Both the position numbers and the translations under genes were made by a program. Positions 6,678-64,000 of a stretch of 64,000 nucleotides of DNA are shown here, piece by piece. This DNA is from Macrostomum lignano. Taxonomy: Eukaryota. A model generated the notes under the pieces. It was not told the origin of the DNA. It saw nothing but the letters and a program-made list of their open reading frames with translations, and made no database searches. How positions within the stretch are numbered: the stretch's first letter is position 1; each line of letters opens with the position of its first letter. The stretch is from NCBI GenBank assembly GCA_002269645.1, contig NIVC01002255.1, forward strand, positions 62,001-126,000, written 5' to 3'.

Positions 6678-7072
<395 letters not shown>

Positions 7073-15800: not shown

Positions 15801-17444
15801 TATCTCCGACACTTCACATCTCCGACACTTCACATCTCCGACACTTCACATCTCCGACACTTCACATCTCCGACACTTCACATCTCCGACACCTCACATC
15901 TCCGACACCTCACATCTCCGACACTTCACATCTCCGATACTTCATATCTCCGACATTTCATCTCTCTGACACGCAAAATTCTAACCCAAAGTCAAACTCT
16001 AACCTTGTCTTAATTACTATTATGTCTGGATGCTTTCTTTCAGATTTAAAATCAGTAGTTTTTTTTATTGGACAATATTTTATTGAAAAAATACACCCTG
16101 TTCCATGCCGTACTCCCATCATTCCATCCGCGCTCATTTGTAGCGGCGGGTTACCATACAACAGCCCTGACTTTCAAATCGTCAAGAAATGTACGCTCTC
16201 AGTGCCTTGGGGGTCGGCCCTCGTAAATATGAATTGCACAACAATTTTAGAGTGGTCAATTTCGTGTACAAGCCCCCAAATGAAGATGAACGCTCATGAA
16301 ATCAAGCCAGAGTTGAAAAGTGTTTCGAAATCAATCGCAAATTTACTTACCGTTAACAATGACTCTACTGATGTCGTAGACCATCGTGTAATTGGGGCCT
16401 CCGCAACTATCTGACGGTTGGCCAACGCATGGAGTCTGGCAATATTTCGCATCCTCCCTAGCATTGTGCAGCAGGGCTTGACCGCAGTGGCAGATCCTTC
16501 CGTTTCTCAGACCGAACAGTGGGAAGAATCTCAATTTGCAAAATCGGTAGCAAATTGCGGGGCTCATAAGTTCGACCACTCTTACTCGCGCAACTCCGAG
16601 TGCCGGAAGCGACATCGAATGTTTGTAGCAGCCTGTTTTAGCTTGGCTAAAGTCTGGCGTTTTGGAATTTTAGAGTTCGTTTTAACATGGTTTTAAAATA
16701 ACCATTCATCATATTGCATGTACGAACGAACAAATTCGTGTACTTAATGGATATGACCACAAATTCAAGTTGATAAACGATTAATCAAGCGGGTAACTAC
16801 ATTAATAATAAAATGGGACCTAGTGTTTCTATCATAGTAAAGAGCCTTAAACAGCTGATTTGGCTTGCAGTCTGTGGGAGAGTGCAGTTCTGTGGCAGTG
16901 GCTTTGATCGGCTTTATTGTCTATGGCCGAGTGCAGTTCTGTGGCAGTGGCTTTGATCGGCTTTATTGTCTATGGCCGAGTGCAGTTCTGTGTCAGTGGC
17001 TTTGATTGGCTTTATTGTCTATGGCCGAGAGCAGTTCTGTGGCAGTGGCTTTGATTGGCTTTATTGTCTATGGCCGAGTGCAGTTCTGTGGCAGTGGCTT
17101 TGATTGGCTTTATTGTCTATGGCCGAGTGCAGCTCTGTAGCAGTGGCTTTGATTGGCTTTATTCTCTATGGCCGAGAGCAGTTCTGTGGCAGTGGCTTTG
17201 ATTGGCTTTATTGTCTATGGCCGAGTGCAGTTCTGTGGCAGTGGCTTTGATTGGCTTTATTGTCTATGGCCGAGTGCAGTTCTGTGGCAGTGCATGGCCG
17301 CTGTTACAGCCAATGGGGAGTTCCAACTATAAAAATTCTATCAGCTATCACTAGCTATGAAAACTTTGACCACTCACCTGCGCTCGCTTGGACAGAAGCG
17401 AGCAGAAAACCAACTAGAAGCAAACTCTTTACAACCAGCTTCAT
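12860..17444 (-). CDS. Secreted double-WSC-domain protein C (exons 17444-17378, 16653-16351, 13167-12860)
   Basis: Signal exon MKLVVKSLLLVGFLLASVQASA. WSC1: KTGCY...CYRFC...FGLRNGRICHCG...CQTPCVG...CGG. WSC2 is absent from the ORF track and was translated by hand: LLGCYKA...YCLDSCFSKRFLYFGLLDGNICQCG...CNLPCSGKKSETCGGVRSIEVYEITK*. Phase-1 GT-AG introns. Confidence 0.88.
13262..15962. repeat. 16-bp satellite, 2.7 kb, in WSC-C intron 2
   Basis: Unit cacatctccgacactt with cat/cac and ctt/cct variants. Confidence 0.97.
16881..17292. repeat. 49-bp minisatellite in WSC-C intron 1
   Basis: Unit gtgcagttctgtggcagtggctttgattggctttattgtctatggccga, about 8 copies. Confidence 0.95.
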
Positions 17445-18297: not shown

Positions 18298-21200
18298 TCA
18301 AAGTATCTCAAACACGTCCATGCAAGTTTTCCCGCCGCAGGTCTCTTCCCTGTTACCCTCGCAGGCCACGCGGCACTGATCGCACGCCATGCAGTTCACC
18401 ATCATTTTGTCGCAGTAACAAAACCGACTTTTGGTTAATCCGAAATACTTGAATCCTTGTTTCACGCAATAGTCATAGCATAACTTGCCAGTCATCTTCA
18501 CAGTCGAGTGCTGAACAGTCTTTGACAGTGGGAAGTTGTAACTGTAGTGGTAGCAGCCCAAGTACACGGAATTCGCTACTTTCGGAGTCTGTTTTAACCA
18601 GGCTTCTGCAAGGGGTTTTAAAAATGAGTCTCTGAGGTCGCCAACAGATCGAGAATTAGCAGCCGACTCAGTGTCTCAGTGATCAACAGCTTTCTTTCTT
18701 TCCTGAGCAATGAGCATACAGTAACACAGGTAGCTAGTGTAGCTAGTGAGTAGAGAGACACGCTACACTTGGCGGTTTGGCACGGTTGCTTTGATGTGCC
18801 AGAGGCCCAGGCTCGATTCCCAGTGCAGTCACATTAATTTTGGGGCTAAATTGGAATCTCGGCTTGGCTCTGCTCGTGCAATTAACGCCATTGAGGGCCA
18901 ACCCTAAGGCACAGTGAAGTGTACATGCATAAGTTAGGGCCGCTGCGCACTCCTGTGTGAGTGTGTGCCTGTGCATATGACTGCGTACGTATCCGCGCGC
19001 TAGTGTGCCTGCTCAGGGGAGTCGGTGGAATGGGCAGTAATGCCTCTCACCAGTTGTGTGACAATTTCCCTTAAAGTGCTCCGAGGGCGTTTACCTAACG
19101 CCAAAAGTGTTCACAAGGCTTCAAAGCATAAATGTAATGTAAATATGAGTACATTCTGACGTCCTCTTAAAACGCAGTATCTTTGATGAACAACGGCAAA
19201 ACCCCGCAAGCAAAGTCACAGAGCAGGGTGCGTCAGATGGTGCGCCGCAGAGCCTGAGAGCGGACGAAGTCCGTCCCGTTGGCAGTGTCGGGCGTCCCGG
19301 CGTCGCGTAGGAGGCAGTCCACGTATCGACGGGTTCGGGCCTGACCCCGCCTGAGCGGGCTCTGCAAGGTGAGCAGCAGAACGTTTTGAACAGGAATTGG
19401 GGGCAGTAGCCCTCGGCCCGGATCACGTGGCCCGCCAGTTGAAGTTGCCGCCGGCGCAGGATGATGGACGGGCGCTGCAGCTTGGCCCGATCGTACAGGG
19501 CCTCGGTCCCGACGCTCTCGTCAGCTCGAAAGGCCGCACGGAGCAGCCCTGAGTGCGCCGAGTCCAGCTGCCGCTCCAGCGCAGCCGTCAGCGTCCACGT
19601 CTCGGCGTTGTATAGCAGGACGGTTTCGACCACCGCCTGCCACAGCCGAGCCTCTGGCGGTCGGGCAGCGCTTCGGACTGGACGACGACCCGGATCGAAC
19701 GGAGGGCCGCCCAGGCAAGTCCTCTGCGCCGCCGGAGGTCTTCCTCCACGTGGGGCACCAGACTGCCGAGTTAGGTGAACCGCTGGCAGCGTGCGAGCCT
19801 GGTCGTCTGCCCGTCTGCGCCGCGGCACGTCAGGCCCGCTGGGATGTCGGCCGGCACATGTCGGCCGGCACCTCGGTCTTCAGCGTGTTGTCAACCAGAC
19901 CGACCCTCGATGCCATCTCGACCAGCCTGTCAATCTGGCGCTGGGCGCCTTCAACGGACGAGGACAGGAGGGCGAGGTCGTCGGCGTAGCCAAGCACGCT
20001 CAGCCTGTGCTTTTCGCTGTGGCGGCGGCCGATGCGTCTACGCAGCAGGAAGCCGTCGTCAGCAGACGGGAGTGCGGTCCAAAGCACCCAGTCCAGCAAC
20101 ACCACGAAGAGGAACGACACCAGTGTGTCGCCCTGCAGAACTCCTGATGAAGTGTCGAACAGGTCAGACAGGCCGTCCGCCGTCACCACAGCTGCTCGAG
20201 TATCGCAATACAGCGACATGACAGCGTCGTTTAGCTGCTGGGGTACCCAGTAGGCTCGAAAAACGAAGGGAAGCGCGGCTCTCAAAACCGAGTCAAACGC
20301 CTTTCAAAAGTCAAAGAAGACAATGATTAGCGTAGACTAGCGGATGCGCGCCTCCTCGATGACACGGCGGAGTGCGAGGATCTGTGTCACTGTACCGCGT
20401 TGCGGCCGGAATCCGTTCTGCTCGTACCGCAGGTACGGGTCCAGCACCGACTGCAGGCGATCGAGCAGCAGCCGGTTGAGGAGCTTCACGGTGCAGGACA
20501 TCAGCGAGATCCCGCGGTGGTCTTCTTTCCGCGTTTTCCCTGCCTTCTTTGAGGTCGGCACGATGTGTGCGACGGTCCACTCGGTAGGTGCAGGAGCGCC
20601 GGCGAGCACGCGGTTCGTGACGCCTGTGACCTGGGAGGCCACAAAGCGGAGCCGCAGCGCTTCGACCGGGACCTCGTCGGGGCCGAGCACCTTGCCGCCT
20701 GATGTTTTCCGAGCGAACAGCACAACGTCCTCCGTGGTGACTGGTCTGGTGCAGAAGTCCTCCTCAGCTGGGAGCGGCGTGTCCAGTGGGAGCGCAAAGC
20801 TGGCGGGCAGCGGCGACGCGGGCGCGTTCACGATGCCGGCGAAGAAGTCGCGCAATTCATTCCTGCGCTCCTCTGGGGTGTCGCAGGCCAGGTTCAGCGC
20901 CACTCGCTTTTTGCGCCCCGTCAGAGTCCGGACGGCCGTCCACACTGACCGGCTCTTCACGTCGGGGCCGGCTGCAGCAGTGATGGACCTGACGGCGTCT
21001 TCGACAGCGCCTGCTGCCGCTCGTCTAGAAGGCGCTCAAACGCGTCTTCAGCGTCGCCTGTGGGCCGCCTGTTTCTGCGGAGTCGCTCGATGTTAAGCCG
21101 CGCCTGCCTGATGGTCGGGTCGCTCTGCCAGACAGGCATCGATTTTTGCGCTGGCCGCATCAGCGGGACCGTCTACTCCGCAGCGGCTCTAATGACGGTG

Positions 21201-23728
21201 CTGATGTCGGTATACTCCGCCTCGCGCTGGTCTCCAAGCGCGCCGACGAAGGCGCCCGCGAATTGACGCTTCACGCGGGTGTCCAACAGTGCGCGGTAGT
21301 AGCGTCGTGGCCGCTGCTTTGGCGGTCGGTAGAGCTGGTCGCGGAGACGCAAGTCGCAGAACAGGAGTCGTTGGTCTGACCAGAGAGCCACTGGAGCCAT
21401 GGTGTCGCAGTTGGTGACGCGGCGGCGCTCGCGAGTGCGAACCAGCGCATGATCGAGTTGCGCCAGTCTCCTCGTGGCGTTCCGCCCGCATGAGTTCCGT
21501 CACCTTTTGCAGCCCGAAAAGGTGACTTGCAGCCCGCACCGCAGGGGGCTTGCGGAACTGGGTGTTCGCGGACACCAGGTCCAGCCGGTCAAGCAGATTC
21601 TCCAGCGCATCGGTGTTTGGCGTTCTCTCGTCCCGCGACAAAAGACGAGTGCTCGGACCTCCGCAGGACTGCGTTCAGGTCTCCGAGCACTGCCAGTGTG
21701 TCGCGGTTTGGCACCTCTTCCAGCTGCCTAGCCAGGAAGTCGAAAAACACGAGCCTCCTCGGGGTGAGCAGCGGTGGGTGCATACGCGCAGAACAGCCGG
21801 ATGCTGTTCCACCCGCATTAGTCGCGGGGACAGCGAGATGCAGTGCACGCTCTGCTGGAGGCGCGGTCCGATCAGCACGCCGACACCGCCCCGGCCGCGG
21901 TCGTCTGCCGACGTGTACAGGAGGCTCCAGCCAGTTCCGAGGTCCTCAGAGTGGAGCCCCGGCTCAGCCACGATAGAGACCTCCTGCAGCATGACGAGGT
22001 CCAGCTGTAGGTCGTGGGCCAGCTGGACGAGATTGATGCGACGCCAGGGGGCCTTCAGAGTTCGGCAGTTCATCGTGCCGAGCCTGAGGCGGCCACCTGG
22101 TACAGCTGGGGCCAGATGGAGGTTGGCCTCGTGGTCCCCGCGGAGCCACCCGGCTGATCCATAGTTGAAGTAGCAGCTGGACTGGGGACAACAGACGCCT
22201 GGCCGCGCCGCGGAGTCGTCTTCGACCGACCTCTGTGTGTCCCTGGAGTGCTGAGCTTTGCTGTCGCAGCCGTAGCGCGGCCGTCCGAGCCAACCGAGGT
22301 CATCCGCGGCCTGGTGATCTGGCCGCGATGCCAAGAGGTGTCAACACTGTTTGCACGGGTGTGCACATATAATGTCTCTGCAAATGTATTGGTTCTTTAA
22401 TGAAGCACAACAGCTTCAGCAACATACCGCTTTTAAAGTGATCATCGTTAAGTACCAGACCAACCGCGAACACCTCCATTGAGTATCTGCCTCCGCACGT
22501 GGCTGACTTCAGCATCTTGCACTGCATTTTTAGGCAACGTCTGTCACTCAGCCTTTGAGTAACAGTAAGCACAGCATTTCCACAGTAGCAGTCCACTCCG
22601 TTGTGCAGGCCAAACAGCCGACGCGAAGCTTTGATGCAACAGTAGTAGCATTTCTCCGGTGTGATGTCAGTCACTTTTGTGCACATCCTGGCCTCTATGG
22701 CCTGGTTCCATCTGGTGTGCGAGAAGCAGCCAACTCCTGCTTTGCTTAGATCTGGAATGGGTTTTTGTCTTGTTGAAGCACTGGGGTTCTTATGTCGTTA
22801 TGAGTAGTCTCGAGCATTAGGTTCCGTTATTAAGCGTTTGGTCCGTTAAAGTAACAGAGGTACTGTTTTTATAACGATTAACGTACCATACTCGTAGTTA
22901 CTTTTTTCGGGGCAACGGAATAACAGTTTTGCGTTGCTTTTTGTTCTCTTCCGTTAAACTTTTTCACTTTTTTCTTTTCTTTGCTTTTAAAAAGCAAGAA
23001 GTAACGAATTAATGCTTTTTTGTAAAAAATTTCCAGTTTTTGTTTATTTTATTTCATTTCGTTTTGTTCTATGAGGATTTTTCTTTTACCACTAACTGAA
23101 TTAATTCTTTTTAATAACGCTGCCCAAAACTTTTTTCGAGCGTTTAGTTTCAACGGGAAATTTATAATAAGACATTTTATACTTGAATTTTTGTCATGGC
23201 ATCTTAAAATCGAAAATAAGACTTAGATTTAGATACTTTAAATAGTTGTTTTCTATCCAATAAAGTTAGATTTTTTTAGTTCTGTATAAAATGAGTGTAA
23301 ATTTCTTCTAAGAAATGAAAACCTGCGCTGTTATGCTTACCTGGGGTCGCCATTACAAGCTCGAAAAATCACATCGTCGAAAACTGATTTACCAACCACC
23401 ATCACAAGCTCGAAAAGTCATAAGCTCGAAAAATCACATCGTTGAAGAGTTTAGCAACCATCATCACAAGCTCGTAAAGGCACAAGCTCTAACCCTAACC
23501 CTAAAGCACCAGTACCCTAACCTAACCCTAAACCCTAACCCTAAAGGCACAAGTTCTAACCCTAACCCTATTCGAGTTTGTGATGGTGGTTGTTAAATCA
23601 GTTTTCGACGATGTGATTTTTCGAGCTTGTGATCGGCCCCCCTTACCTGGACTCTTCGTCGCAGTCGCAATGAAAGCAGGCAACAGAATTCCTACTAGAT
23701 GTAGGAGAAAGCACTGAATTCGCTTCAT
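18298..23728 (-). CDS. Secreted double-WSC-domain protein D (exons 23728-23647, 22751-22428, 18605-18298)
   Basis: Signal exon MKRIQCFLLHLVGILLPAFIATATKSP. WSC1: GVGCF...CYYCC...FGLHNGVDCYCG...CGGRYSMEVF. WSC2: YLGCY...FGLTKSRFCYC...CGGKTCMDVFEIL*. Phase-1 introns. Confidence 0.87.
18745..19143 (+). mobile_element. Near full-length tRNA-derived SINE
   Basis: B-box-like GGCTCGATTCCC near 18810; body shared with 4 other copies; 3' tail taaagtgctccgag...aaagcataaatgtaatgtaaat resembles LINE-derived SINE tails. Confidence 0.6.
19150..22340 (-). mobile_element. Degraded RTE-type non-LTR retrotransposon (APE endonuclease + RT) in WSC-D intron 2
   Basis: APE: RLGTMNCRTL...LVMLQEV...GRGGVGVLI, LGDLNA, DLVSANTQFRK. 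RT: DHRGISLM, EQNGFRPQRGT..QI.ALRR, GVLQGDTL, LGYADDLALL. C-terminal LLYNAETWTLT. Split over about 8 frames by frameshifts and strongly GC-rich. Confidence 0.92.
23345..23641. mobile_element. MITE with subterminal cgaaaaatcacatcg repeats, a central (CCCTAA)-like tract and a 9-bp TSD
   Basis: Inverted arms (acaagctcgaaaaatcacatcgtcgaaaactgattta / taaatcagttttcgacgatgtgatttttcgagcttgt); cttacctgg at 23336-23344 and 23642-23650. Confidence 0.8.
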
Positions 23729-25929: not shown

Positions 25930-27247
25930 ATGAAGTCCCTAACGCTGACTTTGTGGTTCTATTCTGTCGTTCTGTTTTGTCTCTATAAGCCAACATCAGC
26001 TGGGATCGTGTTCACAGTCAACAAGATGGGCAGCCTCTCAACTCCGATTGAAATGGGCTCCGCTGCCGGCAGCGACAGGCTGAAATGCGCCAAATACTGC
26101 ACTGCGAACCCGGCCTGTTTCGGTTTCACCTGGTTGCCGAGTATTTGTCGCCTCTTCAACCTGTCCGCTTTCTACGACTTGGCCTGGGAGAACTCAGCCG
26201 CTAGCGACGTCTACACGAGGAAAGTTGGTAAGTGAAAAGCCTAACCATCTGGTCCTTCGGTGCATTTCCTGCAGTCCTTCGGTGCATTTCCTGCAGTCCT
26301 TCGGTGCATTTCCTGCAGTCCTTCGGTGCATTTCCTGCAGTCCTTCGGTGCATTTCCTGCAGTCCTTCGGTGCATTTCCTGCAGTCCTTCGGTGCATTTC
26401 CTGCAGCTTTCGGTGCATTTCCTGCAGTCCTTCGGTGCATTTCCTGCAGTCCTTCGGTGCATTTCCTGCAGTCCCTCGGTGCATTTCCTGCAGTCCTTCG
26501 GTGCATTTCCTGCAGTCCCTCGGTGCATTTCCTGCAGTCCTTCGGTGCATTTCCTGCAGTCCCTCGGTGCATTTCCTGCAGTCCTTCGGTGCATTTCCTG
26601 CAGTCCCTCGGTGCATTTCCTGCAGTCCTTCGGTGCATTTCCTGCAGTCCCTCGGTGCATTTCCTGCAGTCCTTCGGTGCATTTCCTGCAGTCCCTCGGT
26701 GCATTTCCTGCAGTCCTTCGGTGCATTTCCTGCAGTCCCTCGGTGCATTTCCTGCAGTTTTCATTGCTGTCATTAAATGATCATAACGAGCTCGTTAACA
26801 ACTATGGTGTTAGAATTTCCATAGAAAAACGTCATTATTGCTATTTCAATTGCAGCCAAACTAAACTTCATTGCCTGCAATCAAAGCTCGGTTCTTCAAG
26901 ACGGAGTCTGCGAGAGAGCGATCGATGGAAATAAGATTCAACAATATCACCTTGGCAAAACATGCATGCAAACTGACAGCAAGGGCTACCCAGGCTGGTG
27001 GGAGGGTCAACTCTCTGCTGCTGCTGAGGTGTCGCATGTGACCATCTACAACAGGGTGGACTGCTGCAGCAACCGGTTGAACAAGCTTTCCCTGCAAGTG
27101 GACGGTGTCGAGTGCCACAGGGTGGACCTGACCGTGCCATTTTCGAAAGCCACCTTCAACTGCAACGCCTTTGGAAGCAGGCTCACCGTCTTGAGCCTAG
27201 TGAAGCACATTATTTCCATGTGCGAGGTCGAGATCTATGGAATCTAA
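25930..27247 (+). CDS. Secreted PAN/Apple + F-type lectin (FTP, F5/8-like) protein (exons 25930-26227, 26856-27247)
   Basis: Signal peptide; PAN-like CAKYCTANPACFGFTW....CRLF. Exon 2: ACNQSSV...CERAIDGN...CMQT....PGWWEGQL...VTIYNRVDCCSNRL...SMCEVEIYG (F-type lectin fold motifs). Phase-1 intron. Confidence 0.85.
26252..26758. repeat. 22-bp minisatellite in the PAN-FTP intron
   Basis: Unit cttcggtgcatttcctgcagtc, about 23 copies. Confidence 0.96.
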
Positions 27248-32011: not shown

Positions 32012-49081
<17,070 letters not shown>

Positions 49082-52500: not shown

Positions 52501-53573
52501 TATATGCAACATACAAGTATATATACTTTAGCTCAGTAAACAGTTAAAAGAATATTATTAGATTTGGAGTTTTTTCTCCATAAAAAATTAATTGTGTTGC
52601 TTTATTTAATTGTACAAGTTCCTGTTACTGAATGAAACTATAGAGAGTGTTGCCAAGTCTAACAATTAAAGCACTGATTAAAACTATAAACAGGCTGTGC
52701 AGCACAGCTAGTGGAGGCGCTAAAAACTACACCAGCATAGACAAAGAAGATGTAGCTAAAGAGGCTGAGTACAAGCAGCATCAGGCGGATCGCAAGCTGA
52801 CAACTCCGCGTAATCTCACGGATGAAGAGAAATTCGCCTCGTCCAACATGCGCCTGATCAAATATCGGATCCGGGATGCGGAGGTTGACAAAGCCGCCCC
52901 TGGCTTAGTTGAACGGCGAGTCGAACCCGGGACCACAGTGACAGTGCCAGCTAAGGATGACGTCACGGCTTTGTCGGGTGTGCCTGAGGAGCATATTAAA
53001 ACTCGGCATGTTAGAATTTATTGCCCCACTAGGTGAGTAACAAAGGTGCTTCTTTTTCTTTAAACCACCCAAAAAATCGCCCCTAACCCACCCTCAAAAT
53101 CGCCCTGAACCACCTCGAAAATCGCCCCTAAACCACCCTTAAAATCGCCCCTAACCCACCCCAAAATCGCCCCTAAACCACCCTTAAAATCGCCCCTAAC
53201 CCACCCCAAAATTGCCCCTAACCCACCCCAAAAATCGCCCCTAAACAACCCTAAAGAATCGCCCCTAACCCACCACAAAACCGGTCTCGAACCCAGGTCC
53301 GTCACCCAGTCCGGTTCGCACGGCACCAAGAATTGGCGCATCGAATTCGACAACCGGGAACGCTGGGAGAACCCGCTAATGGGCTGGACCAGCTCAGCCG
53401 ATCCGTTATCCACAATGGCCATCAGCTTCGCCAGCTCCGAGGAGGCCGCAGAGTTCTGCAGCAAAAACGGCTGGGCCTATCATATTGAGGAGAGGCGGGT
53501 GCCGCCGCTTCGGCCGAAATCTTATGGAGCGAACTTCAGCTGGGACAAGCGGACTCGCAGATCTACTAAGTGA
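49581..53573 (+). CDS. NDUFS4: NADH dehydrogenase (ubiquinone) Fe-S protein 4 (exons 49581-49648 inferred, 52694-53032, 53297-53573)
   Basis: [54 protein letters not shown]...[18 protein letters not shown] is the NDUFS4 signature. Inferred exon 1 [22 protein letters not shown](R) has a GTAAGA donor, matching phase 2 and presequence-like composition. Confidence 0.9.
49953..50843. mobile_element. hAT-type MITE (891 bp) in NDUFS4 intron 1
   Basis: 14-bp TIR CAGTGTTGGGCACC...GGTGCCCAACACTG; 8-bp TSD attgatgt / attgttgt (7 of 8 match); subterminal ttaac/gttaa repeats. Confidence 0.88.
53060..53280. repeat. About 23-bp minisatellite in NDUFS4 intron 2
   Basis: Unit aaaatcgcccctaacccacccc(a). Confidence 0.9.
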
Positions 53574-54325
53574 AGAAAAACTGTCTATTATTCAACTGTT
53601 TACTGCTGATTTCGGAAGGAATGTGTAGCATCTAGCTTGAGTCTTGTAATAATAATAATAATAATAATAACAGAATTTTCTGTTTTTCCCCCTAGTTGCT
53701 TCAAAATCCTCGTTCAAATTACATAAACTTTGGAAAGTTTAATTTTTCAAAACCGACTTTACGAAAGGCTCTGCGAAGATGTTTTATTTGCGCACGTTTA
53801 AAATAAACAAAAGTTCAAGGTTTTAAATAAAGACTTGATAAATAGTCTATACATTTGAGCTCCTAAATCATTGCCAAATTCTGTATAATTTTTTTTTCTT
53901 GTACGTTGATAAATTTGGCTAGCAATATAGCTACTAATAGTAGGCTATTTCACAGAAAAAATAAATATTTCAAAGTATTACGAGCGTAAGAGTCGGTGGG
54001 ATTTCGATTTGGTCAGAAGTCGTTTATAATTGCTATCAGGGCTTCATTCGCAAACAATTAACGCTGCAAAGTTAAGCAAAGCTGGTTTTGGTTAGTCCAG
54101 CACAGAGTGTGTACATGTCTGACTGATTAGAAAGTCAGGGCCGCTGTACACCCTGTGTGAGCGTGTGTACGAGTGCGTAACTGAGTACAGTATTGACGCG
54201 CTTGTGTTGTGCTCAGGACTCAGCGAAGTGAGCAGACTTGCTTCAGCGCTGGTTGCTGCTGGGCGATGTCGCCGAAGGCGTTCGTCAAAGTGCTCGCAGC
54301 CCTCTTCAGAATATTATATCAAATA

Positions 54326-54721
54326 TTACTCAATCAAACCAGTTATCCACTGAGTGGAGCAGGCGCGTCGCCACCGGGGGGACATGGCAATGCTTTGTCC
54401 ACGACGACGACAGAGCACGACGCGGTCTTCTGCGTGTTGACCACCAGGCTTTGGTTCAGGGACATATTGTTCAGGGTCAAATGTACACGAACGAAAATTT
54501 ACAGGGTACGGCAATTCAAACAGTTCAGGATCCGGATAGTGGCCAAACCAGTCTACGCGAATCTTCTTCGATTCTTGAAAGAACTCTTGCCTCAATAGGT
54601 TTTTCACAAGTGTGGTCTTGCCGCTTTGAGCCACCCCAGCAAAAATTGCCGACGTGTTGGGGGAAAATTTTAAAGAGTCGGGGTCTATTGTTTGATACAT
54701 TTTGATAGGCCGCCCAATCAT
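54326..54721 (-). pseudogene. Polinton/Maverick A32-like packaging ATPase, copy 1 (frameshifted)
   Basis: SAIFAGVAQSGKTTLVKNLL Walker A; a hydrophobic VVVVD stretch lies in a shifted frame; adjacent to capsid genes. Confidence 0.75.
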
Positions 54722-54799
54722 GCATATATTTATGGATGATGCTGCTTTATTTGTAGACAGTGATTCTGCACCATCAAGTCGTTCTCATAAAGATTTTTG

Positions 54800-55170
54800 C
54801 TATAAAACAATCACGCAATATTTTTTTAATAGACAGACCCTCCAAAAAGTGTTTTTCAGCCACAAATATTACATGAGCCCCGCAGGTCACACTTAGCGGA
54901 TGTTATACAGGATGCCGGTTCATTGCCACCTCCACAGGGACATACTTTGCGATCCACAACTTTAATAAATCTGGCACAGAATCGATACACAAGGGGTCAA
55001 AAAATGTCACGCTCTCATCGGCATGAAGACAAATTAAAGCCCGGTAGATTGCCAGTGTCAAAGTTAATCACGTATGCAGCAGGATAAACAGGCTGCGGAA
55101 TCCTGTCAACCGGTATAACTCTAACAGGGACAGGTAGTATTAAACGGTCTAATATATCTAGACTATTCAT
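54800..55170 (-). pseudogene. Polinton adenain-like cysteine protease, copy 1 (not in the ORF track)
   Basis: Hand translation: YPAAYVINFDTGNLPG / frameshift / TFFDPL ... NRHPV*HPLSVTCGAHVIF. The His-Trp segment is missing and the oxyanion Gln position is a TAA stop. Confidence 0.72.
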
Positions 55171-55221
55171 ATCGGCATGAATATAGCCGTTATTATAGAG
55201 AATAAAAAAAGATGTTTGTTT

Positions 55222-56539
55222 CTACACGTAGTCTAGAATAACCTGACGACCGCGAGTGATTTGCACAGTATTGCCAAAGTAGCCAAACACCAACACGTTG
55301 ATTCCTACGGTCAAGGCAGCAGAAAACTTTATTTGTAGCGTCAGATTCCCTCGCTCGCGAGGCATGCTATGCCCACCCAGCTCCATGTCGGGCATGAGAT
55401 TCCAGGCGAAGAAGCAGTAGCCAGCTCCATAGTCGGAATATGATATGTCAATATCCAGGTCCCGATTCATCTTTCCTAGGCTTTTTAGTAGCATGGCATA
55501 CTCGCGAGCATAGTTATTAACACCGAATCGAGGAGTAAACGGTTGTCAACACAGGCTGACCCAGTCCTTATACAGAGCCACACTGTCGGCTCCAATGGTT
55601 CAAAATTAAACGGGTTATGTTTAGCCACACCATAGTAAGCACCGCTGTTCACCATACCAACAACCACAAGTTTAGGCTTTTGCTCAGGAAATATATTGTT
55701 GATTGACACGTCTCGAACACCGCCGGCCACTGAAGTATTGTGCACAACAAGCCGCTCAATTGGATAGACTGCATTCTGTTTGCCTAGTTGTTCTTCAATC
55801 TCCAAAGCCAATTGGGGGTTTGCCTTGACGCGGCGCACATGTAGCTTGGCACTGCTTGGAACTGCGAGTACCAGCCGCGCCTCAACCCCGTTGGCATGGT
55901 TTTCCAGAACGAAGCCGGAATTGTGCATAGTTAGCGTAATTATCATATCCGTGTATGGCAGCAGCGTTCGGTCGGATCGTTGGTGACATAAAAGTCTAAA
56001 CTAAGAGGTCCATAAAGGTGAAATGTGCGTGAGTCTGCCGCCATCGCCTTGCGAGCTACAAAGCCAGGATTTCCAACCACGGCAATTTGGCCTCCAGCGT
56101 CCTTTGCGTAGCCCATCATTCTCAGTTGGTTGGTTTTTGAATCGTGACCGTAATTCAGGCACGTGCGAATATAGGCCTTGTAAGCGTGATTGTTATTGCT
56201 CGACTCTACGTGGGTCCCGTTGATGGTCAACGTAACATTTTTAAACGAGGACGCAATTGACGTAATTTTTTAAGGACGTAATTGACCGGCGCAACATTCG
56301 AATCAGCAGCAAGATTTGTGCCATTAGATTGCCCAACGCGGGCCTTAATCTCGAGGTCAATGTCGTTAAGATCGATAAGCGTCTCACCGCCAACAATCCT
56401 AAATTCGACCACGCTGGCATTTTCAACACTGCATGGCAACAGGGTGAACTTCTTCAGTGGTAGCGCTAATTGCAGCAATTTGGTGCGCACGAGGAGCAAA
56501 TAGCTCGAATTCCGACTTTTTACACAGACACTCAGTCAT
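55222..56539 (-). pseudogene. Polinton double-jelly-roll major capsid protein, copy 1 (several frameshifts)
   Basis: KS-EFELFAP, VVEFRIVGGETLIDLNDIDLEIK, VAPVNY, LTINGTHVESSNNNHAYKAYIRTCLNYGHDSK, YPIERL, KPKLVVVGMVNSGAYYG..HNPFNF, ISYSDYGAGYCFFAWNL..D, GNLTLQIKF; motif order of the Maverick MCP. Confidence 0.88.
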
Positions 56540-56579
56540 TTTTTTAACAGCGGCTTAGTGTGGTGCTCTAATAGTCAGA

Positions 56580-56915
56580 TCATAATATCAGAATGCTGCA
56601 GTCTTTTTCTCGTTTTTTGTTAGTCTTCTTTCTACGCCTCTGACCACCGCCGCTACCTCGTTGTGCGACTGTGTCTTTGAAAGCATCTTTAGCTGCCTGG
56701 ACAGAGTTGCGCAATGCTGCTTCTTTCAAGTTCCCGTCTTGATCGAGTGTGTCGCTAACTGTTGTAGTTAGGGCTCGTGTTCCGTGGCAAAGAATATTTT
56801 TGCCAAAACTCTTTAAAATTGGCAGGGCAAATCGGGCAATGCTGCCAAACAGGCCGTTGCCGCGCTGTGCACCGGAAAATACCGGTAAAGCTTCTCCGAT
56901 CAAGATTGAAGGCAT
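56580..56915 (-). CDS. Polinton small basic core-like protein (adenovirus pVII/pX-like)
   Basis: PVFSGAQRGNGLFGSIARFALPILK...QRGSGGGQRRRKK; QRGxG motifs resembling protease cleavage sites; lies just upstream of the MCP. Confidence 0.72.
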   Translation of the reverse strand: MPSILIGEALPVFSGAQRGNGLFGSIARFALPILKSFGKNILCHGTRALTTTVSDTLDQDGNLKEAALRNSVQAAKDAFKDTVAQRGSGGGQRRRKKTNKKREKDCSILIL

Positions 56916-56959
56916 ATTGATAATTAGCTGCTGACTTTTTATTCGTGAAAGTTCTTTAT

Positions 56960-58112
56960 TTATAGCATAATTTCACGAATGTTGATCGATAAAACAGTTT
57001 TGCCTCGAAGAATCCGATCCATTAACTTGCCCATATCGTCACAGATTTGCACCTCAATGGTTTTGAATGGGTGTTTCACCAACGGTAAGTACAGGATGGA
57101 TTGACAAACTCGTAATACTCTCGTTCACCGTGTACCTTTTCATTCAAAGGAATTGCCCCAAGCAGTGTGACTTTGACGTCTCCAACAATGGCAGAGTCGA
57201 CAATACTTGAATAGATGTACATAGTTTGTATACCATTTGTTAAATCGATTGGTCGTTTAGCTGTCTTTGGAGTTTCATTAAAAACCTTCACGAAAGCCGA
57301 GAATGGCAGCAAGCTCTCCAATATCGAATAAAATGTTTTCAATGGGTTTGTACTCACACCGGTTCAGAAAAGGGTTGTAGCGGAATGCATCCACTCTCGT
57401 CGCTGGACTTATTGGGAGCTTTGAAACGACGCTCCAGAGCGCTCCATTAACATAATTTAAGAGCTCATCAGGCGTGCAGTAGAATCCTTTAGCAATCCGC
57501 AGTGACGTTCTAGAAGGCCAGACACTCTTTTCAACCGTAAGAGTCATGGGACTCTCTATGGAGGCTTCCAATTCTATAGCGAATACTAATTAACGAATTT
57601 CTTGGGTTTACTAAAAAACTTGTTACTTCGATATTTGATTTATTTCCAGCGTCATCAACCTTTTTAAACATGCTACGCACATTACTGGACAGCCTAATTT
57701 TCACACCATACCATGATTTATTCACAATCGAAATTTGACCTTCCTGTGAACGCTCTATGCAAATCATTGCATTATCGTCTTGCGCATATTTTAGAGCGGC
57801 GATGATTGCATCAACCACTTCGTTAGCTGTGGATAGGCCCGCGGGGAGACAAACCGACGCAAACTGCTTATACGTGGAGGCGGGTTTTTCTTTAACCTTG
57901 ATGTCAATCACTTCATCCTCGGGAGCGTTGGTCAGGACATCAACAATTCGATTATCGGGGACGGTTTTGAATTCTTTACAAAAGTAGATCCGTTCGATGC
58001 AGACTACATGATTTGGAAAGTGGAGGGTGTTGGGCAAATTAATGCTATAATGAGCCGAATTATTCTCAAGATAGTGCTCAACGCACGCATTGCTAGGTAG
58101 GAATAGATGCAT
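56960..58112 (-). pseudogene. Polinton minor capsid (penton-like) protein, frameshifted
   Basis: N-terminus MHLFLPSNACVEHYLENNSAHYSINLPNTLHF; C-terminus MYIYSSIVDSAIVGDVKVTLL...YLPLVKHPFKTIEVQICDDMGK...GKTVLSINIR. Confidence 0.8.
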
Positions 58113-58563
58113 TGTAATATACACACGTTTCGGTTGTGTGTGTGTGTGTGTGTATGCTTATCCTTGTCTTGTATTTATAACTTCCTCAGCTGGTACAAAT
58201 GCATTGAACGACTCGGGATAGCCGCGCCAACTAACGAAATGATGAGCGACGCCATTGATGACAACATTGCGTCTGTTGTCATCTGTCTGTGTATTGGCTA
58301 TCTTATACCGATTTGAACTGTACTGCTTTGTGCGTTTGGCTGCTCAATTCTAGCTTACCATTTTAGACCCTCCCCCTCCACTGAGCTGATCAATTTCTAT
58401 TTATACGAACAGTACTTCTTCGCAATGTACATCGTTCGTCCTAACTACATGTACTCAGTTCTATAATACAACATAAAGGACCAACGCGTCAGTCAAGAAA
58501 CGCTGTTTACAACTTGCGGCTCAAGCCAATTCAATCGCTTCGTCCTGATCTCAATCCATCACA
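58113..58563 (+). mobile_element. Putative 5' LTR of the Gypsy element
   Basis: TGTAAT...ATCACA termini, immediately followed by a PBS-like TGGCGTCGAGG and gag; no second LTR in the window to confirm it. Confidence 0.6.
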
Positions 58564-60927
58564 ATGGCGTCGAGGACTTTTGGCCAAATTCCAGAACTTT
58601 CTGCTGAATCAGACCTTGAAATCTACGCTGAGCGCATGAACCAATATTTCATATGCAATAAAGTTGAGACTGCCGAGGCCAAGCGTGTTATCTTTCTTAC
58701 TGCCATTGGTGAGAAATACTACAAATTGCTTCGCGACTTGTGTCAGCCACAGAAACTGACTGAAAAATTCTACGAGAAGCTGCAGGACATACTAAAGAAG
58801 CATCGCTCGCCCGAACTTTCGGAGATCGCCGCTTGTTTCAAATTTCAGCAACGTCTTCAGCAAGATGGTGAATCTTTCGCTAACTTCTTGGCAGGACTGA
58901 AAAACGCTGCAAACCATTGCAAGTTTGGCGAATCCCTTCAGGAGCGACTTCGAGATCAGTTTTTGTTCGGAATGAGAAGCGACACTTTCCGCTCTAAGCT
59001 ACTCGAGAGTTCGGATCATTCGTACGCTGGGCTGATCAAACTGTCCTTGGACCTCGAAGCTGCTCACAAATCGTCAAGCGAGATGGCGCACACTTCAGCA
59101 ACCAATTGAGTCAGCGCGAATCCATCAGTGGCACGCCCGAGAGCACAGTACAACATCAGCCAACACTCTGGTCCCGCTGGATCAGCATCCAAGCCAGGCA
59201 CCTGCGACAGCTGTGGAGATCCACACTCGCGTCAGAACTGTAAATTCCGTAACTCGAAATGCCATGCTTGCGGGAAGGTTGGCCACATTAAAAAGGTTTG
59301 CAGGTCAGCAAAATCTGTGAAACTCCTGGAGGAGAATGAAACCGGGTCTCAGTACGACGAAGAAAACTACGAGGAAGAGCCAATATTACATGTCTCAATG
59401 ACTTCCAAGTCCCCGATTCTGGTGCCTCTGCAAATCGAGGAAGTGCAATCTCATTTTGAGCTGGACACAGGATCTGCTGTAAGTCTCGTTCCTAAGGCAT
59501 TCTATGACAGCCGTCTGTCTCATCTGCGACTGCATCCGTCCAAGACGACTCTGCGAACCTACACGGACCAGAGTTCTCTCCGATTGGATAAGTAACAGTG
59601 AAGGTCACTTACGAAGGGCAGGTAGCTTCTCTGCCGCTACTCGTGGTGTCTGAAGGCAGCGCTCGACTCCTGGGACGCAACTGGCTAACCGTCATCCGCC
59701 TAGACTGGCCTCGCTTGACAGCACCTGTCAACTCGTTGATCGCAGCACCTAACGATATGGCTACTGAGCTGGTCCGTCAGTTTCCGGATGTCCTCGCCGA
59801 GGGTCTCGGTAAGTATCGCCTCAGTGAAGTCGATCTTTATTTACAAGAAAATGCGACGCCAAGGTTTTACAAGGCGCGACCGATTCCCTATGCTCTGCGT
59901 GAGACCGTCGATTTAGAGCTTCAGCGCATGGAATCAGAAGGGGTCATCACTCCAATAGCGACTTTTCGATGGGCTGCCCCGATTGTGCCAGTAGTAAAGA
60001 AGGACGGTTCTGTACGAATCCGCGGAGATTACAAGTTTACATTCAACCAGGTCGCAAAGCAAGAGCACTACCCACTGCCGAGGATCGAAGATTTATTTGC
60101 GAGACTGGGTGGCGGCCACAAATGGAGCAAAATCGACCTGGCAAAAGCATTTCTGCAGCTCCCAATATCAGAAGACAGCAAACAGTACCTCGTTATCAAC
60201 ACTCAACGTGGACTGTTCAAGGTGAACCGCCTGCCATTCGGCATCTGCTCGGCCAGTGCAATTTTTCAACGCATCCTTGACAGTCTACTCGGGCACCTCA
60301 ACGGCGTCCAGGTTTATCAGGACGACATACTGGTTACCGGGTCTTCACTGGCGGCTCACAAAGAAAATCTGCTGCAAGTCCTGCACAAGCTTCAAGATCC
60401 GGACTGCGTCTCAACGTCGCCAAGTGTGCTTTCTTCCAAGACTCCATCGACTATCTGGGCCACCGAATTGACCAACACGGGCTGCGGCCGCTCGAGAGCA
60501 AGGTCGAAGCCGTTCAGAACGCGCCGGCTCCGAAAGACGTGTCTCAGCTGCGATCCTATTTGAGAATGCTGACACATTACGCCAAGTTTCTTCCCAACCT
60601 GGCATCAGTCGTGGCGCCGCTTAATCAGCTCTTGTCGAAGGGCGTCAGCTGGCTTTGGGGCGACCGCGAGAACGAAGCCTTCCAAGCATCGAAGCGAATG
60701 CTGCTCGAATCAAAAGCTCTGATGCACTTTGATCCAAATCTGCCGATTCGTCTCGAGTGTGACGCTTCCGCGTACGGCATTGGCGTGGTTCTCAGTCACC
60801 GGGTGGGCGGTCAGGATCATGCGATCGCATTTGCTAGTAAGTCGCTGACTTCAGCCCAGCGAAACTATTCTCAGCTGGATAAAGAGTCACTAGCAATAAT
60901 CTACGGTGTCCAACGCTTCCAACGGTA
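58564..60927 (+). mobile_element. Mag-like Ty3/Gypsy retrotransposon: gag, two Zn knuckles, protease, RT, RNase H; 3'-truncated with no integrase
   Basis: YAERMNQYF gag; CDSCGDPHSRQNC and CHACGKVGHIKKVC; ELDTGSAVS protease; WAAPIVPVVKKDG, RLPFGICSASAIFQ, YQDDIL RT; CDASAYGIG, YSQLDKESLAI RNase H; stops and frameshifts. Confidence 0.93.
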
Positions 60928-60929
60928 TG

Positions 60930-61150
60930 CAGCTCTCAATGTGTTTTTGTGCAATAATGATGAATTCGCGACCTTCGTTGTCAGTACGCACATCCTTGAT
61001 GATCAAAATAGGGATTGCATTGGCTGAGTAGAGAGGTCTCTGTTCGTCATATTCAATGTCAAACGTTTCAATCCCGTTGAAGCTCGGACCACGCGGTTTG
61101 AGTGCCAGCTGCTCTCGCTTGACGCAGTTGAAGTCTTGCACTGCCTCCAT
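60930..61150 (-). CDS. Unassigned ORF with an upstream TATA box, probably from the second Polinton, truncated at the Gypsy junction
   Basis: Minus-strand GGGTATAAAAG about 60 bp upstream of ccATGG; no family recognised. Confidence 0.35.
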
Positions 61151-61966
61151 GGCTCTTGATTTTAGAAAAAGTTGCAGTTACGGGCGCTTGATGCTCCGGG
61201 CTGGTGCTTTTATACCCGAGAGACTCAATAAGTTTTTTTGTTTTAATTACACGATAACGAGCTTTTTACGGAGTTGTCGTTATCGGGGATTCCGGAAAAA
61301 ATGAACCTTTTGTTCCTATTTTCGGGTGCTGGCGTTGGAGGCGTGTTGAAATCCTTGCTCCAAGTTGTTGGCAGTTCAAGCTTGACGTGTCGTTACCTTG
61401 ATGACGTGTCTGGCTACAAAGTTAGCATTGTGTCTCGACCGGGTTGTTGCGTAACACTGCTGGTAGCTATAGCGGAGCGCGTAGGGCAGAGGGGTGGACA
61501 GCAGCGATTTACAGCGGCTGACTGACTCATGTCTCCTCCGCGGGGCCGCCAATTAATTGCGAGGGGCGACTGAATATGAAGATTTTCTTGGATGGGTGGG
61601 CGCTAATTCTGCGCGTACACCAATTTTGAATATATATGGCCAGTTAATATGGACAGCTAATAATATGGACAGTTATGGGTAGGTGGGCGCGCTAATTCTG
61701 CGTACAACTATGCTGCATTGAAACTTGGGGGCTGGGCGCGTCCGCGCTTCTGCGTACAACAACAGCTACAGTGGAGTAGGCCGAGCGCTAATTATGCGTA
61801 CTATATTGTACTGATCGCTTCTGTACGACACAATGTACAAATGGGAATGTACACTGATTACATGTATAATTAGATTTACATGAGAGTTACATGTATAAAT
61901 ATCTCACATAATGACTTACATGAATCATAATGAAGGTCTGGATCAATTAGAAGAGGTCTAATGCAT

Positions 61967-62275
61967 TTAGATAGGCGTTGAATTTGCATTGGCTCTGACA
62001 CCCACCTTACCTCCAAAATCAACCACTTTCTGCACGATACGTAGTAATCCTTGCTGTAGGTGCACTCCAAGACTGCTCAGCTCAGAATGGGCTGGTTGGA
62101 TAATCCCATAGTGCCACAGAACTCTCCCTGGCTTCACATCAAACAGATTATCCCTGTACTGTATCAGATGCTTTACGAATGTTGTTTTTCCTGCATTCGT
62201 GGGGCCGCACACAATCATGCAGCTTCCTTGCCGCAGGCGGATATCATAACATCTTCTACTCACAGTTGATTCCAT
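61967..62275 (-). pseudogene. Polinton packaging ATPase, copy 2 (N-terminal fragment)
   Basis: YDIRLRQGSCMIVCGPTNAGKTTFVKHLI...FDVKPGRVLWHYG; homology is lost after about 62040. Confidence 0.82.
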
Positions 62276-62341
62276 CTCTAAACCGAGTTAAGTAAAAAAA
62301 TCACGATACTGTTCCTTTCTTAAGCTATCTTCAAACTCCCA

Positions 62342-62660
62342 CTACATTCTGTCATTCAGATGACTTTTTTCCTTTGCATGCAGATGCCACAGAATGCACC
62401 GAAACGACCGCTTGAATCGAAACTTCTGATAGACAAAATAGAGACAAAACAGACCGCAGTTAACAGAGTTGCAGCTCTGAATTCGATTCAAATTACAACG
62501 CATATGAATTGGGGAATTCCAAACTTCTTTGAGGGTTGTATGTATTACCCCTAAAGTCTTTAGATCCCAGCCGAGAGAATTAAAAAGTTCGATTGAGTTT
62601 CCTTCACTAACATAGCAAACTACCCAGTGACCGAAGGACACGTTATGTTGTAGCAAGAAG
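62342..62660 (-). pseudogene. Polinton adenain-like cysteine protease, copy 2 (N-terminus missing)
   Basis: GHWVVCY...LFNSLG...NLNRIQSCNSVNCGLFCLYF, in the H-(D/N)-Q-C order of adenain-type proteases. Confidence 0.82.
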
Positions 62661-62689
62661 AAAATAAAGTGAATTTACTTCTATATGCA

Positions 62690-63140
62690 TCATCTTTCAG
62701 ATTTGCGAACATGCAGAACGCATTGGGAAATTTCCATGCGCTAGTCTGTGGTGTTTTCAGCCGGGGTTCTGATGGAAAATGCAGCATCGCTCGGTAGCGA
62801 CTTGACATGTAGGTGCAGATTGTTCAACAGAAACACTGGGCACTGAAAGATGTCGCTGAGCAGCGGACCCGCATACTCCACCCATCGGGACTCCCTGTGG
62901 CTCTCCAGGTGCGACTCAGCAGCTGAGTCGGGTTGCAGGAATCCCGCAGGGTAGAACTTTAGGTGCTGTGCATCGGATGAACTCATCAGAGCTTTGAAGT
63001 CGGCATGGTAGGGATACCGTAGAGTTGGTCTCCCCCAGACACAACTCGCTGGTTGATGCTGACGATGCTGATGCTGGCCGAAGATAGCACAAAGTTTTCG
63101 GGGTATACATCACTGTCTCTGCGTTCGGTAACAACTCCAT
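62690..63140 (-). pseudogene. Polinton major capsid protein, copy 2 (N-terminal third, frameshifted)
   Basis: Joined frames: SIVSINQRVVSGGDQLY / PYHADFKALMSSSDAQHLKFYPAGF ... VEYAGPLLSDIFQCPVFLLNNLHLHVKSLPSDAAFSI ... VLHVRK, collinear with the MCP copy 1 motifs. Confidence 0.68.
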
Positions 63141-63144
63141 CATC

Positions 63145-63850
63145 GTCTCGAACATCCTCTCTCAACTCCATCACCATCTCGAACATCCTCTCTCAACTCC
63201 ATCACCATCTCGAACATACCCTCTCAACTCCATCATCATCTCGAACATCCTCTCTCAACTCCATTATCATCTCGAACATCCTCTCTCAACTCCATCACCA
63301 TCTCGAACATCCTCTCTCAACTCCATTATCATCTCGAACATCCTCTCTCAACTCAATCACCATCTCGAACATCCTCTCTCAACTCCATCACCATCTCGAA
63401 CATCCTCTCTCAACTCAATCAACATCTCGAACATCCTCTCTCAACTCAATCACCATCTCGAACATACTCTCTCAACTCCATCATCATCTCGAACATCCTC
63501 TCTCAACTCCATTATCATCTCGAACATCCTCTCTCAACTCCATCACCATCTCGAACATCCTCTCTCAACTCCATTATCATCTCGAACATCCTCTCTCAAC
63601 TCAATCACCATCTCGAACATCCTCTCTCAACTCCATCACCATCTCGAACATCCTCTCTCAACTCAATCACCATCTCGAACATCCTCTCTCAACTCCATCA
63701 TCATCTCGAACATCCTCTCTCAACTCAATCACCATCTCGAACATCCTCTCTCAACTCAATCACCATCTCGAACATCCTCTCTCAACTCCATCATCATCTC
63801 GAACATCCTCTCTCAACTCCATCATCATCTCGAACATCCTCTCTCAACAA
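63145..63850. repeat. 31-bp minisatellite interrupting MCP copy 2
   Basis: Unit catcaccatctcgaacatcctctctcaactc. Confidence 0.95.
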
Positions 63851-64000
63851 ACCTCCACCCCCGTCGGACAAGGCGACAGCGAATGTATAGAAAAGAGTTA
63901 AGCAGATCAGTGTATTCGTCAGCTGATGGATGGCAGTCAAATTCAATGGGAGAGTTTGCAGCAATGGAGTTCACAGGGTGGATATCAACATATGAGGACT

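Follow-up and report, generated by a model that had tools for sequence, protein, structure and literature searches.

In the virion module of Polintons, a double jelly-roll major capsid protein (MCP) and a penton protein form the shell, an ATPase packages the DNA, and maturation of core and capsid proteins falls to a protease. In vertebrate Mavericks the module is conserved in the order mCP > PW > MCP > protease, 96% of loci are degraded, the integrase lies upstream of the minor capsid gene and the ATPase is mostly found in an opposite-strand module, while modules on the same strand are reported from Xenopus tropicalis (PMC8097293). Adintoviruses (PMC8502044) are defined as Alpha or Beta on PolB (with an OTU domain or not) and on whether hexon and penton cluster with the Mayetiola or the Terrapene references; they have in common with the locus described here an animal host and a hexon-penton-adenain-ATPase set, of which all but the hexon are putative here. 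Endogenous Polinton-type regions are also present in flatworm genomes, i.e., the Orthopolintovirales-related insertions of Rhabditophora, which are poorly covered by reference databases (10.1101/2025.04.19.649669). Several Polinton lineages per genome (in corals), mostly degraded copies, a conserved gene order and flatworm insertions are already in print. For Macrostomum, a literature search, with subscription papers and Repbase outside its reach, gave no description of Polintons, and the M. lignano genome paper does not mention them in its text or three supplements.

We analysed a stretch of 64,000 nucleotides of Macrostomum lignano (contig NIVC01002255.1, positions 62,001 to 126,000), hereafter the window. 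Two virion modules lie on its minus strand, their capsid pseudogenes ca. 5.4 kb from each other, and a truncated retrotransposon sits in the interval. We consider it highly probable that these are what is left of two dead Polinton/Maverick elements with different capsid families, which entered the germ line in separate integrations and then decayed. The gene order of the left element on one strand, an MCP of ca. 430 aa with a predicted double jelly-roll fold and the decay itself resemble Polintons/Mavericks (Polintoviricetes; PMC8097293). In contrast to most vertebrate Mavericks (PMC8097293), the protease is followed by an ATPase encoded on its own strand. A retrotransposon stands where the integrase would precede the minor capsid gene, and pPolB, integrase, PZ/PM, TIRs and 6-bp duplications were not seen in the window.

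Gene content of the two virion modules

The left element comprises the following features:

54390..54720, minus strand: P-loop ATPase, 5' part, truncated, with a Walker A motif (end point set by eye)
54760..55170, minus strand: putative protease pseudogene, broken, following the MCP, with YVINFD, FDPL and CG motifs
55222..56539, minus strand: MCP pseudogene, full-length, predicted double jelly roll, four frameshifts
56580..56915, minus strand: putative core or PW-like protein, an open frame of 111 aa with a basic C-terminus and two QRGxG motifs
56960..58112, minus strand: putative minor capsid (penton) pseudogene, broken into four, preceding the core and MCP genes

Their order is mCP > PW > MCP > protease, in which the mCP, PW and protease labels are putative. 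Five pieces of the left locus cover residues 1-427 of P0015, an intact 427-aa protein, at 70-79% identity (tblastn); the fragment at 55488-56000 matches it with E 2.4e-52, and 314 of 414 residues of the left MCP are identical to it (76%). The predicted model of P0015 (pLDDT 96.4) aligns with a PBCV-1 capsid chain (VIA Z 28.4, rmsd 3.0, 356 aligned) and has a Foldseek match in the PDB at E 1.6e-18, and the left MCP is accordingly modelled as a double jelly roll. The minor capsid and core genes proposed in an initial annotation are present as candidates in the expected positions, with labels that stay under curated cut-offs. For the former, ESM Atlas returned unnamed viral clusters (0.97) and a mostly eukaryotic cluster (0.96) with the N-terminal piece and only uninformative short clusters with the C-terminal one, and a single-sequence fold reached only pLDDT 34, with no Pfam match; we take its terminal motifs to be minor-capsid-like. 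The core-like protein is identical at 14 of 38 positions to the pre-capsid segment of a fused model, P0036, a segment picked by eye (0/500 shuffles as high). As the amphipathic, basic product of a small gene ahead of the MCP, it may also resemble, by description, the cupiennin-like accessory gene of Beta/Terrapene-class adintoviruses (PMC8502044). No His-Trp motif was seen in the two protease pieces searched, none of the three pieces had a Pfam match, and all three compared weakly with the right protease (z 0.6, 0.1 and 2.0; a weak match of 10/41 identical residues was equalled by 21 of 2000 shuffles). The left ATPase is related to its right counterpart (17/43 identical, 0/500 shuffles as high). 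The left set had been drawn as far as 54326; the frame running there leaves the truncated ATPase and enters unrelated sequence.

The right element, whose capsid gene is interrupted by a minisatellite, is composed of:

62050..62275, minus strand: P-loop ATPase (putative packaging ATPase), 5' third, truncated, matching P0014
62342..62650, minus strand: remnant of an adenain-like cysteine protease that lacks its N-terminal part
62702..63165, minus strand: MCP pseudogene, middle part (residues 74-227 of 427), one frameshift and one stop
63132..63848, no strand: tandem array, 23 copies of a 31-nt unit, inside the MCP gene and splitting it
63861..64000, minus strand: MCP pseudogene, 5' part, gene start beyond the window edge

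This module had been thought to begin at 63140, but residues 24-69 of P0001, another intact 427-aa protein, match 63998-63861 (85% identity, E 2.7e-20 by tblastn; capsid profile E 3.8e-12). The middle part is 66-70% identical to P0001 (tblastn), and its fragment 62744-63109 matches at E 3.8e-36, which bears out the reading of the 62.7-63.1 kb fragment as MCP; overall, 139 of 186 residues are identical (75%), and the C-terminal ca. 200 residues (228-427) are missing. An alignment of 432 columns links P0001 with P0015 (E 1.5e-42), and by it the right MCP can be assigned to the double jelly-roll family. The array (TRF: 23.1 copies, 94% matches; 23 units at exact 31-nt spacing) appears to have been amplified from the gene's own coding sequence, its unit in the capsid frame resembling residues ca. 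73-83 of P0001 and P0002. Long frames across 63023-63999 were rejected as genes, being the tandem array. The protease carries a His-Trp motif at 62629, ca. 70 nt past the capsid break, FNSLG at 62584 and a Gln..Cys-Gly that we read as a protease motif, and matches Pfam Peptidase_C5 at E 0.009 (16.2 bits, under the 21.3 cut-off). The ATPase is identical at 46 of 61 positions to the ATPase-like part of P0014, a Macrostomum lignano UniRef gene model, and the similarity ends near 62057. The same model includes the C-terminus of a capsid, with 85% identity to P0001, i.e., the right lineage recurs in this species as a capsid end followed by an ATPase. P0014 is annotated as 'Parvo_NS1 domain-containing' and seems to have been joined incorrectly as a gene model. 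No minor capsid gene of the right element was seen within the window, its expected place being beyond the edge.

The initial annotation had described two MCP > protease > ATPase sets on the minus strand. Both modules are indeed on that strand, as are both Walker A motifs (GVAQSGKT and GPTNAGKT) and the two capsid peptides it had quoted, but the right set is incomplete, lacking the capsid end and the protease N-terminus, and both ATPases are truncated. None of the protease, ATPase, minor-capsid or core candidates reached a curated Pfam or NCBIfam cut-off (for the ATPases, where truncation removes the family motifs, FtsK_SpoIIIE gave E 0.03, other P-loop matches were also sub-threshold and Pox_A32 was not matched), and these labels are less secure than those of the capsids.

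Relationship of the two capsids

Among 1813 six-frame fragments of the window (>=20 aa), a capsid profile had eight matches at E<=1, five in the left locus, three in the right and none elsewhere; as the profile contains P0001 and P0015, it is dependent on the pairwise matches to these proteins. The left and right capsids are identical at only 38 of 176 aligned residues (21.6%), and cross-family identity is 21-27% (right to the left's family 36/170, left to the right's family 108/394). The best DNA match between the modules is 15 bp (E 1.1), tblastx gave a single 11-residue match (E 0.54), and three of three direct pairwise capsid alignments were not above shuffles, so that relatedness is visible only via the family alignment. 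The strong divergence claimed earlier, with MCPs that are not near-identical at the DNA level and no recent tandem duplication, is thus confirmed.

Each window copy has closer relatives outside the window, i.e., 71-75% identity to P0001 and P0002 (right) and to P0015, P0170 and P0172 (left), and 53% to P0003. All six (P0003 with the right family) are uninterrupted whereas the window copies are broken, and public data hold several intact capsid variants per family, 80-85% identical within a family. The tree places the left and right pieces of the window in different clades (support 100 and 99), the right one with P0001 and P0002 at 99. Forcing the two narrow families together was rejected (p-AU 4.3e-94, 55 proteins), while a wider common clade for both families was not (p-AU 0.077). 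P0001 and P0015 share 27% identity, a distance typical within a 98-protein capsid set (median of any pair, 28.6%). Judged from these sequences, the two capsids are separate lineages and not products of a local duplication.

No named hexon occurs among the close relatives of either capsid. Placement among named adintoviruses finds no support: no named reference hexon was among the proteins returned, and the sole 'Adintovirus sp.' entry in BFVD is 12% identical. The top BFVD match to the P0015 model was R9XLG5, an uncharacterised protein of Cotesia sesamiae Mombasa bracovirus (E 6.2e-30, 27% identity), which may be a capsid protein from a Maverick that the bracovirus had captured. The capsid relatives matched no Pfam capsid family (15/15), P0001 and P0015 no NCBIfam model, and PDB sequence searches gave chance matches only; a search for literature on DUF5901 found none. 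The Polinton label of the capsids, as a putative family assignment, comes from gene context and the top BFVD match and not from a named HMM. The virion module is the one part of a Polinton on which membership is based.

Intervening sequence and element ends

Between the modules lie three further features:

58151..60935, plus strand: Ty3/Gypsy-type LTR retrotransposon, gag-protease-RT-RNase H, 3'-truncated, gag ATG at 58564
60935..61150, minus strand: short ORF of unknown kind that enters retrotransposon sequence, no Pfam or NCBIfam match
61570..61930, no strand: non-coding tract with short direct repeats (17 nt x3, 15 nt x3)

The retrotransposon, which the initial annotation does not mention, has a gag zinc knuckle, RT and RNase H in that order (zf-CCHC E 0.007, RVT_1 E 4.6e-15, RT_RNaseH_2 E 2.7e-29). 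Its integrase and second LTR were not found, nor was another copy of 58151-58570 in the window, and its 5' LTR boundary is putative. The short ORF may be part of the left element, and the tract is possibly the sub-terminal region of one of the two elements (61150-62100 holds seven direct-repeat families and no inverted pairs). At least four deletion-like junctions can be recognised, i.e., from capsid residue 227 to mid-protease and at the ends of the right ATPase, the retrotransposon RNase H and the left ATPase. The window as a whole is repeat-rich (29.6% tandem arrays), with another RT remnant at ca. 19.8-21.0 kb, and had no Rfam matches.

In agreement with the earlier observation that pPolB, integrase and TIRs are not visible, neither pPolB nor an rve integrase turned up when 22 + 37 frames of the window were compared with Pfam, or by tblastn with P0036, a search over truncated elements, one running off the window, whose outcome says nothing on the parents. 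The polymerase-like and integrase-like parts of P0036 are our own reading by eye, which Pfam did not support. No TIRs or target-site duplication were found around either module, none of the 25/38 inverted-repeat pairs listed brackets them, and the (AGT)2 / (AG)3 end motifs are absent at plausible ends (no AGTAGT, ACTACT, AGAGAG or CTCTCT between 61031 and 63130); deletion may have removed the true ends, or they may lie beyond the window.

History of the locus

Under two separate integrations, each parent would have been a standard Polinton with pPolB, a retroviral-type integrase, TIRs and a virion module, and would have inserted by its own integrase. Frameshifts, the retrotransposon insertion and minisatellite expansion inside the right capsid gene would have followed, and the deletions would have removed the replication and integration genes and brought the remnants together. 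The two modules would have the same gene order because module synteny is conserved, not because of a recent common origin, and the locus is now most likely without function.

An old tandem duplication of one element, diverging in place, would account for the shared strand, order and near spacing, yet we give it practically no credence, as each copy is ca. 75% identical to a separate intact family against 22% to its neighbour, the joint narrow families are rejected and DNA similarity is lacking; the tree, p-AU and identities reject local duplication, recent or old. The strand and order would also suit a composite element moving as a unit with two divergent virion modules. Module swapping among adintovirus lineages is reported (PMC8502044), as are butterfly Polintons in which hexon and adenain are each present twice (10.1101/2025.02.07.637071). 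The butterfly copies, however, are inverted repeats in TIRs whereas ours are direct and strongly diverged, P0014 shows the right lineage only and no shared termini were found, which makes this reading very unlikely. Hardly more probable is that viral genes were domesticated to serve the host or that unrelated pieces were joined in assembly: the core-like frame is still open, but a short frame may stay so by chance and all other genes of both modules are broken; and the M. lignano assembly is described as difficult owing to repeats (PMC5730564), but the window has no N, and sequencing indels could add frameshifts yet would not account for a capsid short of 200 residues, a tandem array or a retrotransposon.

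Nested or targeted insertion, i.e., one Polinton in or beside the other at a preferred or tolerated site (a TE graveyard or piRNA-cluster-like trap), refines two separate integrations and does not replace them. Three mobile elements are stacked within ca. 10 kb, the repeats at 61570-61930 may represent the end of an element next to the right ATPase, and retrotransposons inside Polintons and related elements are reported (10.1101/2025.02.07.637071, PMC12220804, PMC8547959). Still, this is one locus in a repeat-rich window, deletions alone can join distant remnants, and no termini or target-site duplication were found, and we regard nesting as a possible but rather unlikely refinement. Of the earlier proposal of two distinct viral lineages at one site, the two lineages are borne out by the capsid clades; for nesting no termini were found. 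The insertion hotspot that it also raised finds no support in this single locus.

The locus is an ordinary fossil. Its use is as a pointer towards two families of Polinton capsids, neither of which gave a named close relative here; Macrostomum lignano has at least one of the two. The array is, in addition, a neat case of a minisatellite arising from viral coding sequence. We further speculate, with low confidence, that Macrostomum-type flatworms harbor two or more unnamed polintovirus families, deeply split with 27% identity between their capsids, perhaps active or recently active, perhaps one old flatworm-associated radiation, perhaps piled up non-randomly at trap loci. The importance is modest, and would grow with a demonstration of intact copies and of non-random clustering in a laboratory model. 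If the speculation is true, a transgenic-ready, regenerating animal would gain a tractable Polinton system, in which one could ask if Polintons of animals form virions and by what means they are silenced in a stem-cell-based germ line.

Capsid genes of two Polinton families

The major capsid proteins (MCPs) of the left and right modules, the two minus-strand Polinton virion gene sets of the window, are identical at only 38 of 176 common columns (21.6%). Each copy shares ~75% identity with its own intact 427-aa relative (P0015 for the left, P0001 for the right) and 21-27% with the relative of the other copy. P0001 and P0015 are themselves 27% identical, near the 28.6% median among 98 family members. 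A tree was built from 123 full-length proteins (those outside 380-480 aa were left out) and three unjoined window pieces, by a quick search with SH-aLRT support only; in it, the left pieces group with P0015, P0170 and P0172 (support 100) and the right piece with P0001 and P0002 (99). These separate clades, together with the low identity between copies, bear out the initial annotation, which had proposed two distinct lineages and no recent duplication. In constraint tests on 55 of the tree's proteins, with groups chosen after the tree was seen, forcing the two narrow families together was rejected (p-AU 4.3e-94), and forcing them together with their next relatives was not (p-AU 0.077), so a deeper common origin of both families is possible. 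Local duplication is excluded by the rejected narrow grouping and by the much higher identity of each copy to its own family than to its neighbor.

Decay of the two modules

Five minus-strand genes, spanning 58112 to ~54390, make up the left module; the third (MCP) is a firm call and the other four are weaker. Searched against 1.84 billion representatives, fragment 55488-56000 recovered 788 proteins at E<=0.001, with P0015 at the top (E 2.4e-52). Residues 1-427 of P0015 are all covered by five tblastn pieces in changing frames (70-79% identity), showing that the left MCP gene has kept its full length and carries four frameshifts. The predicted model of P0015 (pLDDT 96.4, with a 98-sequence alignment as input) matches double jelly-roll capsids, e.g., the PBCV-1 capsid in VIA (Z 28.4, rmsd 3.0, 356 aligned); all of the best 16 VIA rows are viral capsid or scaffold proteins, and Foldseek concurs. 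In the ESM Atlas the penton candidate comes close to viral clusters without a name (score 0.97), 16-18% of whose members carry DUF5901; its fold prediction gave no usable model. The core candidate matches the stretch right before the capsid in P0036, a fused gene model, at 14 of 38 residues in a segment picked by eye (0 of 500 shuffles as high). The protease candidate is broken and bears a faint resemblance to its right counterpart (21 of 2000 shuffles as high), and the ATPase candidate retains a Walker A motif and ends early.

The right module runs off the window edge. With fragment 62744-63109 as query, 61 candidates yielded a single relative, P0001 (E 3.8e-36), so the expected MCP match at 62.7-63.1 kb is present. 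By tblastn, residues 24-69 of P0001 fall at 63998-63861 and residues 74-227 at 63165-62702, and residues 228-427 have no match within the module. As residue 24 already lies at 63998, the gene starts outside the window, not at 63140 as annotated initially. The two parts are separated by 23 copies of a 31-nt unit (63132-63848, 94% matches) that, translated in the capsid frame, resembles residues ~73-83 of P0001 and P0002, indicating that this minisatellite grew out of the capsid gene itself. The His-Trp motif of the protease lies only ~70 nt past the capsid break, which points to a deletion of several hundred bases; its Peptidase_C5 match (E 0.009) is under the cut-off. The right ATPase is identical to P0014 at 46 of 61 residues, with similarity ending near 62057.

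For the viral genes of the window, P0014, a Macrostomum lignano UniRef model, is the only close record with a name, which makes Macrostomum or a relative the probable host. Labelled "Parvo_NS1 domain-containing" (586 aa), it combines the end of a Polinton capsid with the start of an ATPase, an unassigned stretch and a TBP-like domain (Pfam E 2.8e-11), and is probably a gene model mis-joined across a Polinton copy.

Sequence between the modules and genomic setting

Features between the modules include:

58151-60935, plus strand: Ty3/Gypsy-type retrotransposon, 3'-truncated (Pfam domains; 5' LTR putative)
60935-61150, minus strand: start of a short ORF flanked by the retrotransposon and the repeat tract

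The gag ATG of the retrotransposon is at 58564; protease, reverse transcriptase (E 4.6e-15) and RNase H (E 2.7e-29) follow, and the element stops at ~60935. It has no integrase, and no second LTR was found in the window. Its putative 5' LTR begins at most ~40 nt from the left minor-capsid start, beside a (TG)n run. The short ORF has no Pfam or NCBIfam matches. Past the retrotransposon, non-coding sequence at 61570-61930 carries short direct repeats and might be the end of an element; both an inverted partner and a canonical end motif are absent from it.

The surrounding DNA is eukaryotic and intron-rich, contains no N, and is ~29.6% tandem arrays (25 in the TRF list); for M. lignano, the available text of PMC5730564 gives 21% LTR elements, with simple and tandem repeats at 15%. 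Host exons include a papain-type protease (Pfam) and NDUFS4 (53061-53573, plus strand, Pfam E 3.2e-33); ahead of the NDUFS4 exon, at what looks like an intron position, is a tandem array (23 nt x 9.6). WSC domains occur in six frames, four on the plus and two on the minus strand. Together with an F5/8-type domain and the exon of a tyrosine phosphatase, they are spread over 3288-8353, 18298-18675, 22300-22797, 26825-27247 and 33424-33921 and are possibly pieces of WSC-rich receptor genes. A 273-nt x 10 array (39266-42032, 99% matches), with TAAC and ACTA microsatellites at its borders, seems to have been amplified very recently. Inverted-repeat pairs of MITE-like type (74-94 nt) occur at 5489-6149, 9964-10260 and 23343-23642, those at 10.0 and 23.4 kb being mutually related. 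The 63% GC block at ~19100-22300 (minus strand) contains two fragments of reverse transcriptase (RVT_1 E 5.5e-7 and 2.4e-7) and is another degraded retroelement. A short repeat is dispersed in both orientations (82-89% identity), with copies at 32892-32985, 16157-16205, 7841-7867 and 54100-54195, the last lying immediately to the left of where the left ATPase breaks off.

Origin of the locus and published relatives

No pPolB, integrase or TIR was detected in the window, Pfam having covered 22 frames in 52.6-64 kb and 37 others (33 drawn from 77 frames of at least 120 aa in the first 48 kb, the rest of the 77 being mostly tandem-array frames); tblastn of P0036 against the window matched the capsids and nothing else. 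Set against the class definition in the available part of PMC11071308, the Polinton capsid is present, and the parts for replication and integration and the termini are missing or beyond the window. The locus works as, and very probably is, a pair of Polinton fossils: most likely two Polintons of different families inserted separately and then died. Of this proposed history, the presence of two capsid lineages, the decay of both, the 31-nt array and the retrotransposon are observed. Each Polinton would have been inserted by its own integrase, deletions would have taken away pPolB, integrase and TIRs, and the region would have been compacted at four junctions. Owing to such deletions, nesting and adjacency of the two elements are not separable, and a single locus cannot show a hotspot. 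A bolder reading, in which these are two unnamed flatworm polintovirus families that may be active and whose clustering is not random, is unlikely in our estimation.

According to the accessible portions of the literature, integrase, minor capsid, PW, major capsid and protease form one conserved module in vertebrate Mavericks, 96% of whose loci are degraded (PMC8097293). Single hosts with more than one distinct polintovirus lineage are described there among corals (PMC11131425) and among butterflies and moths, whose Polintons also carry Gypsy and LINE inserts (10.1101/2025.02.07.637071), and nested retrotransposons are on record in PLVs and virophages (PMC12220804, PMC8547959). The available main text of the adintovirus paper PMC8502044 does not mention flatworms, and the available text of the nematode preprint 10.1101/2023.08.22.554363 adds nothing on nesting. 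Polinton-type insertions in Rhabditophora are already published in the part available of 10.1101/2025.04.19.649669, and the left and right families may be among them. We consider both elements to be additional instances of the Polinton/Maverick type already described.
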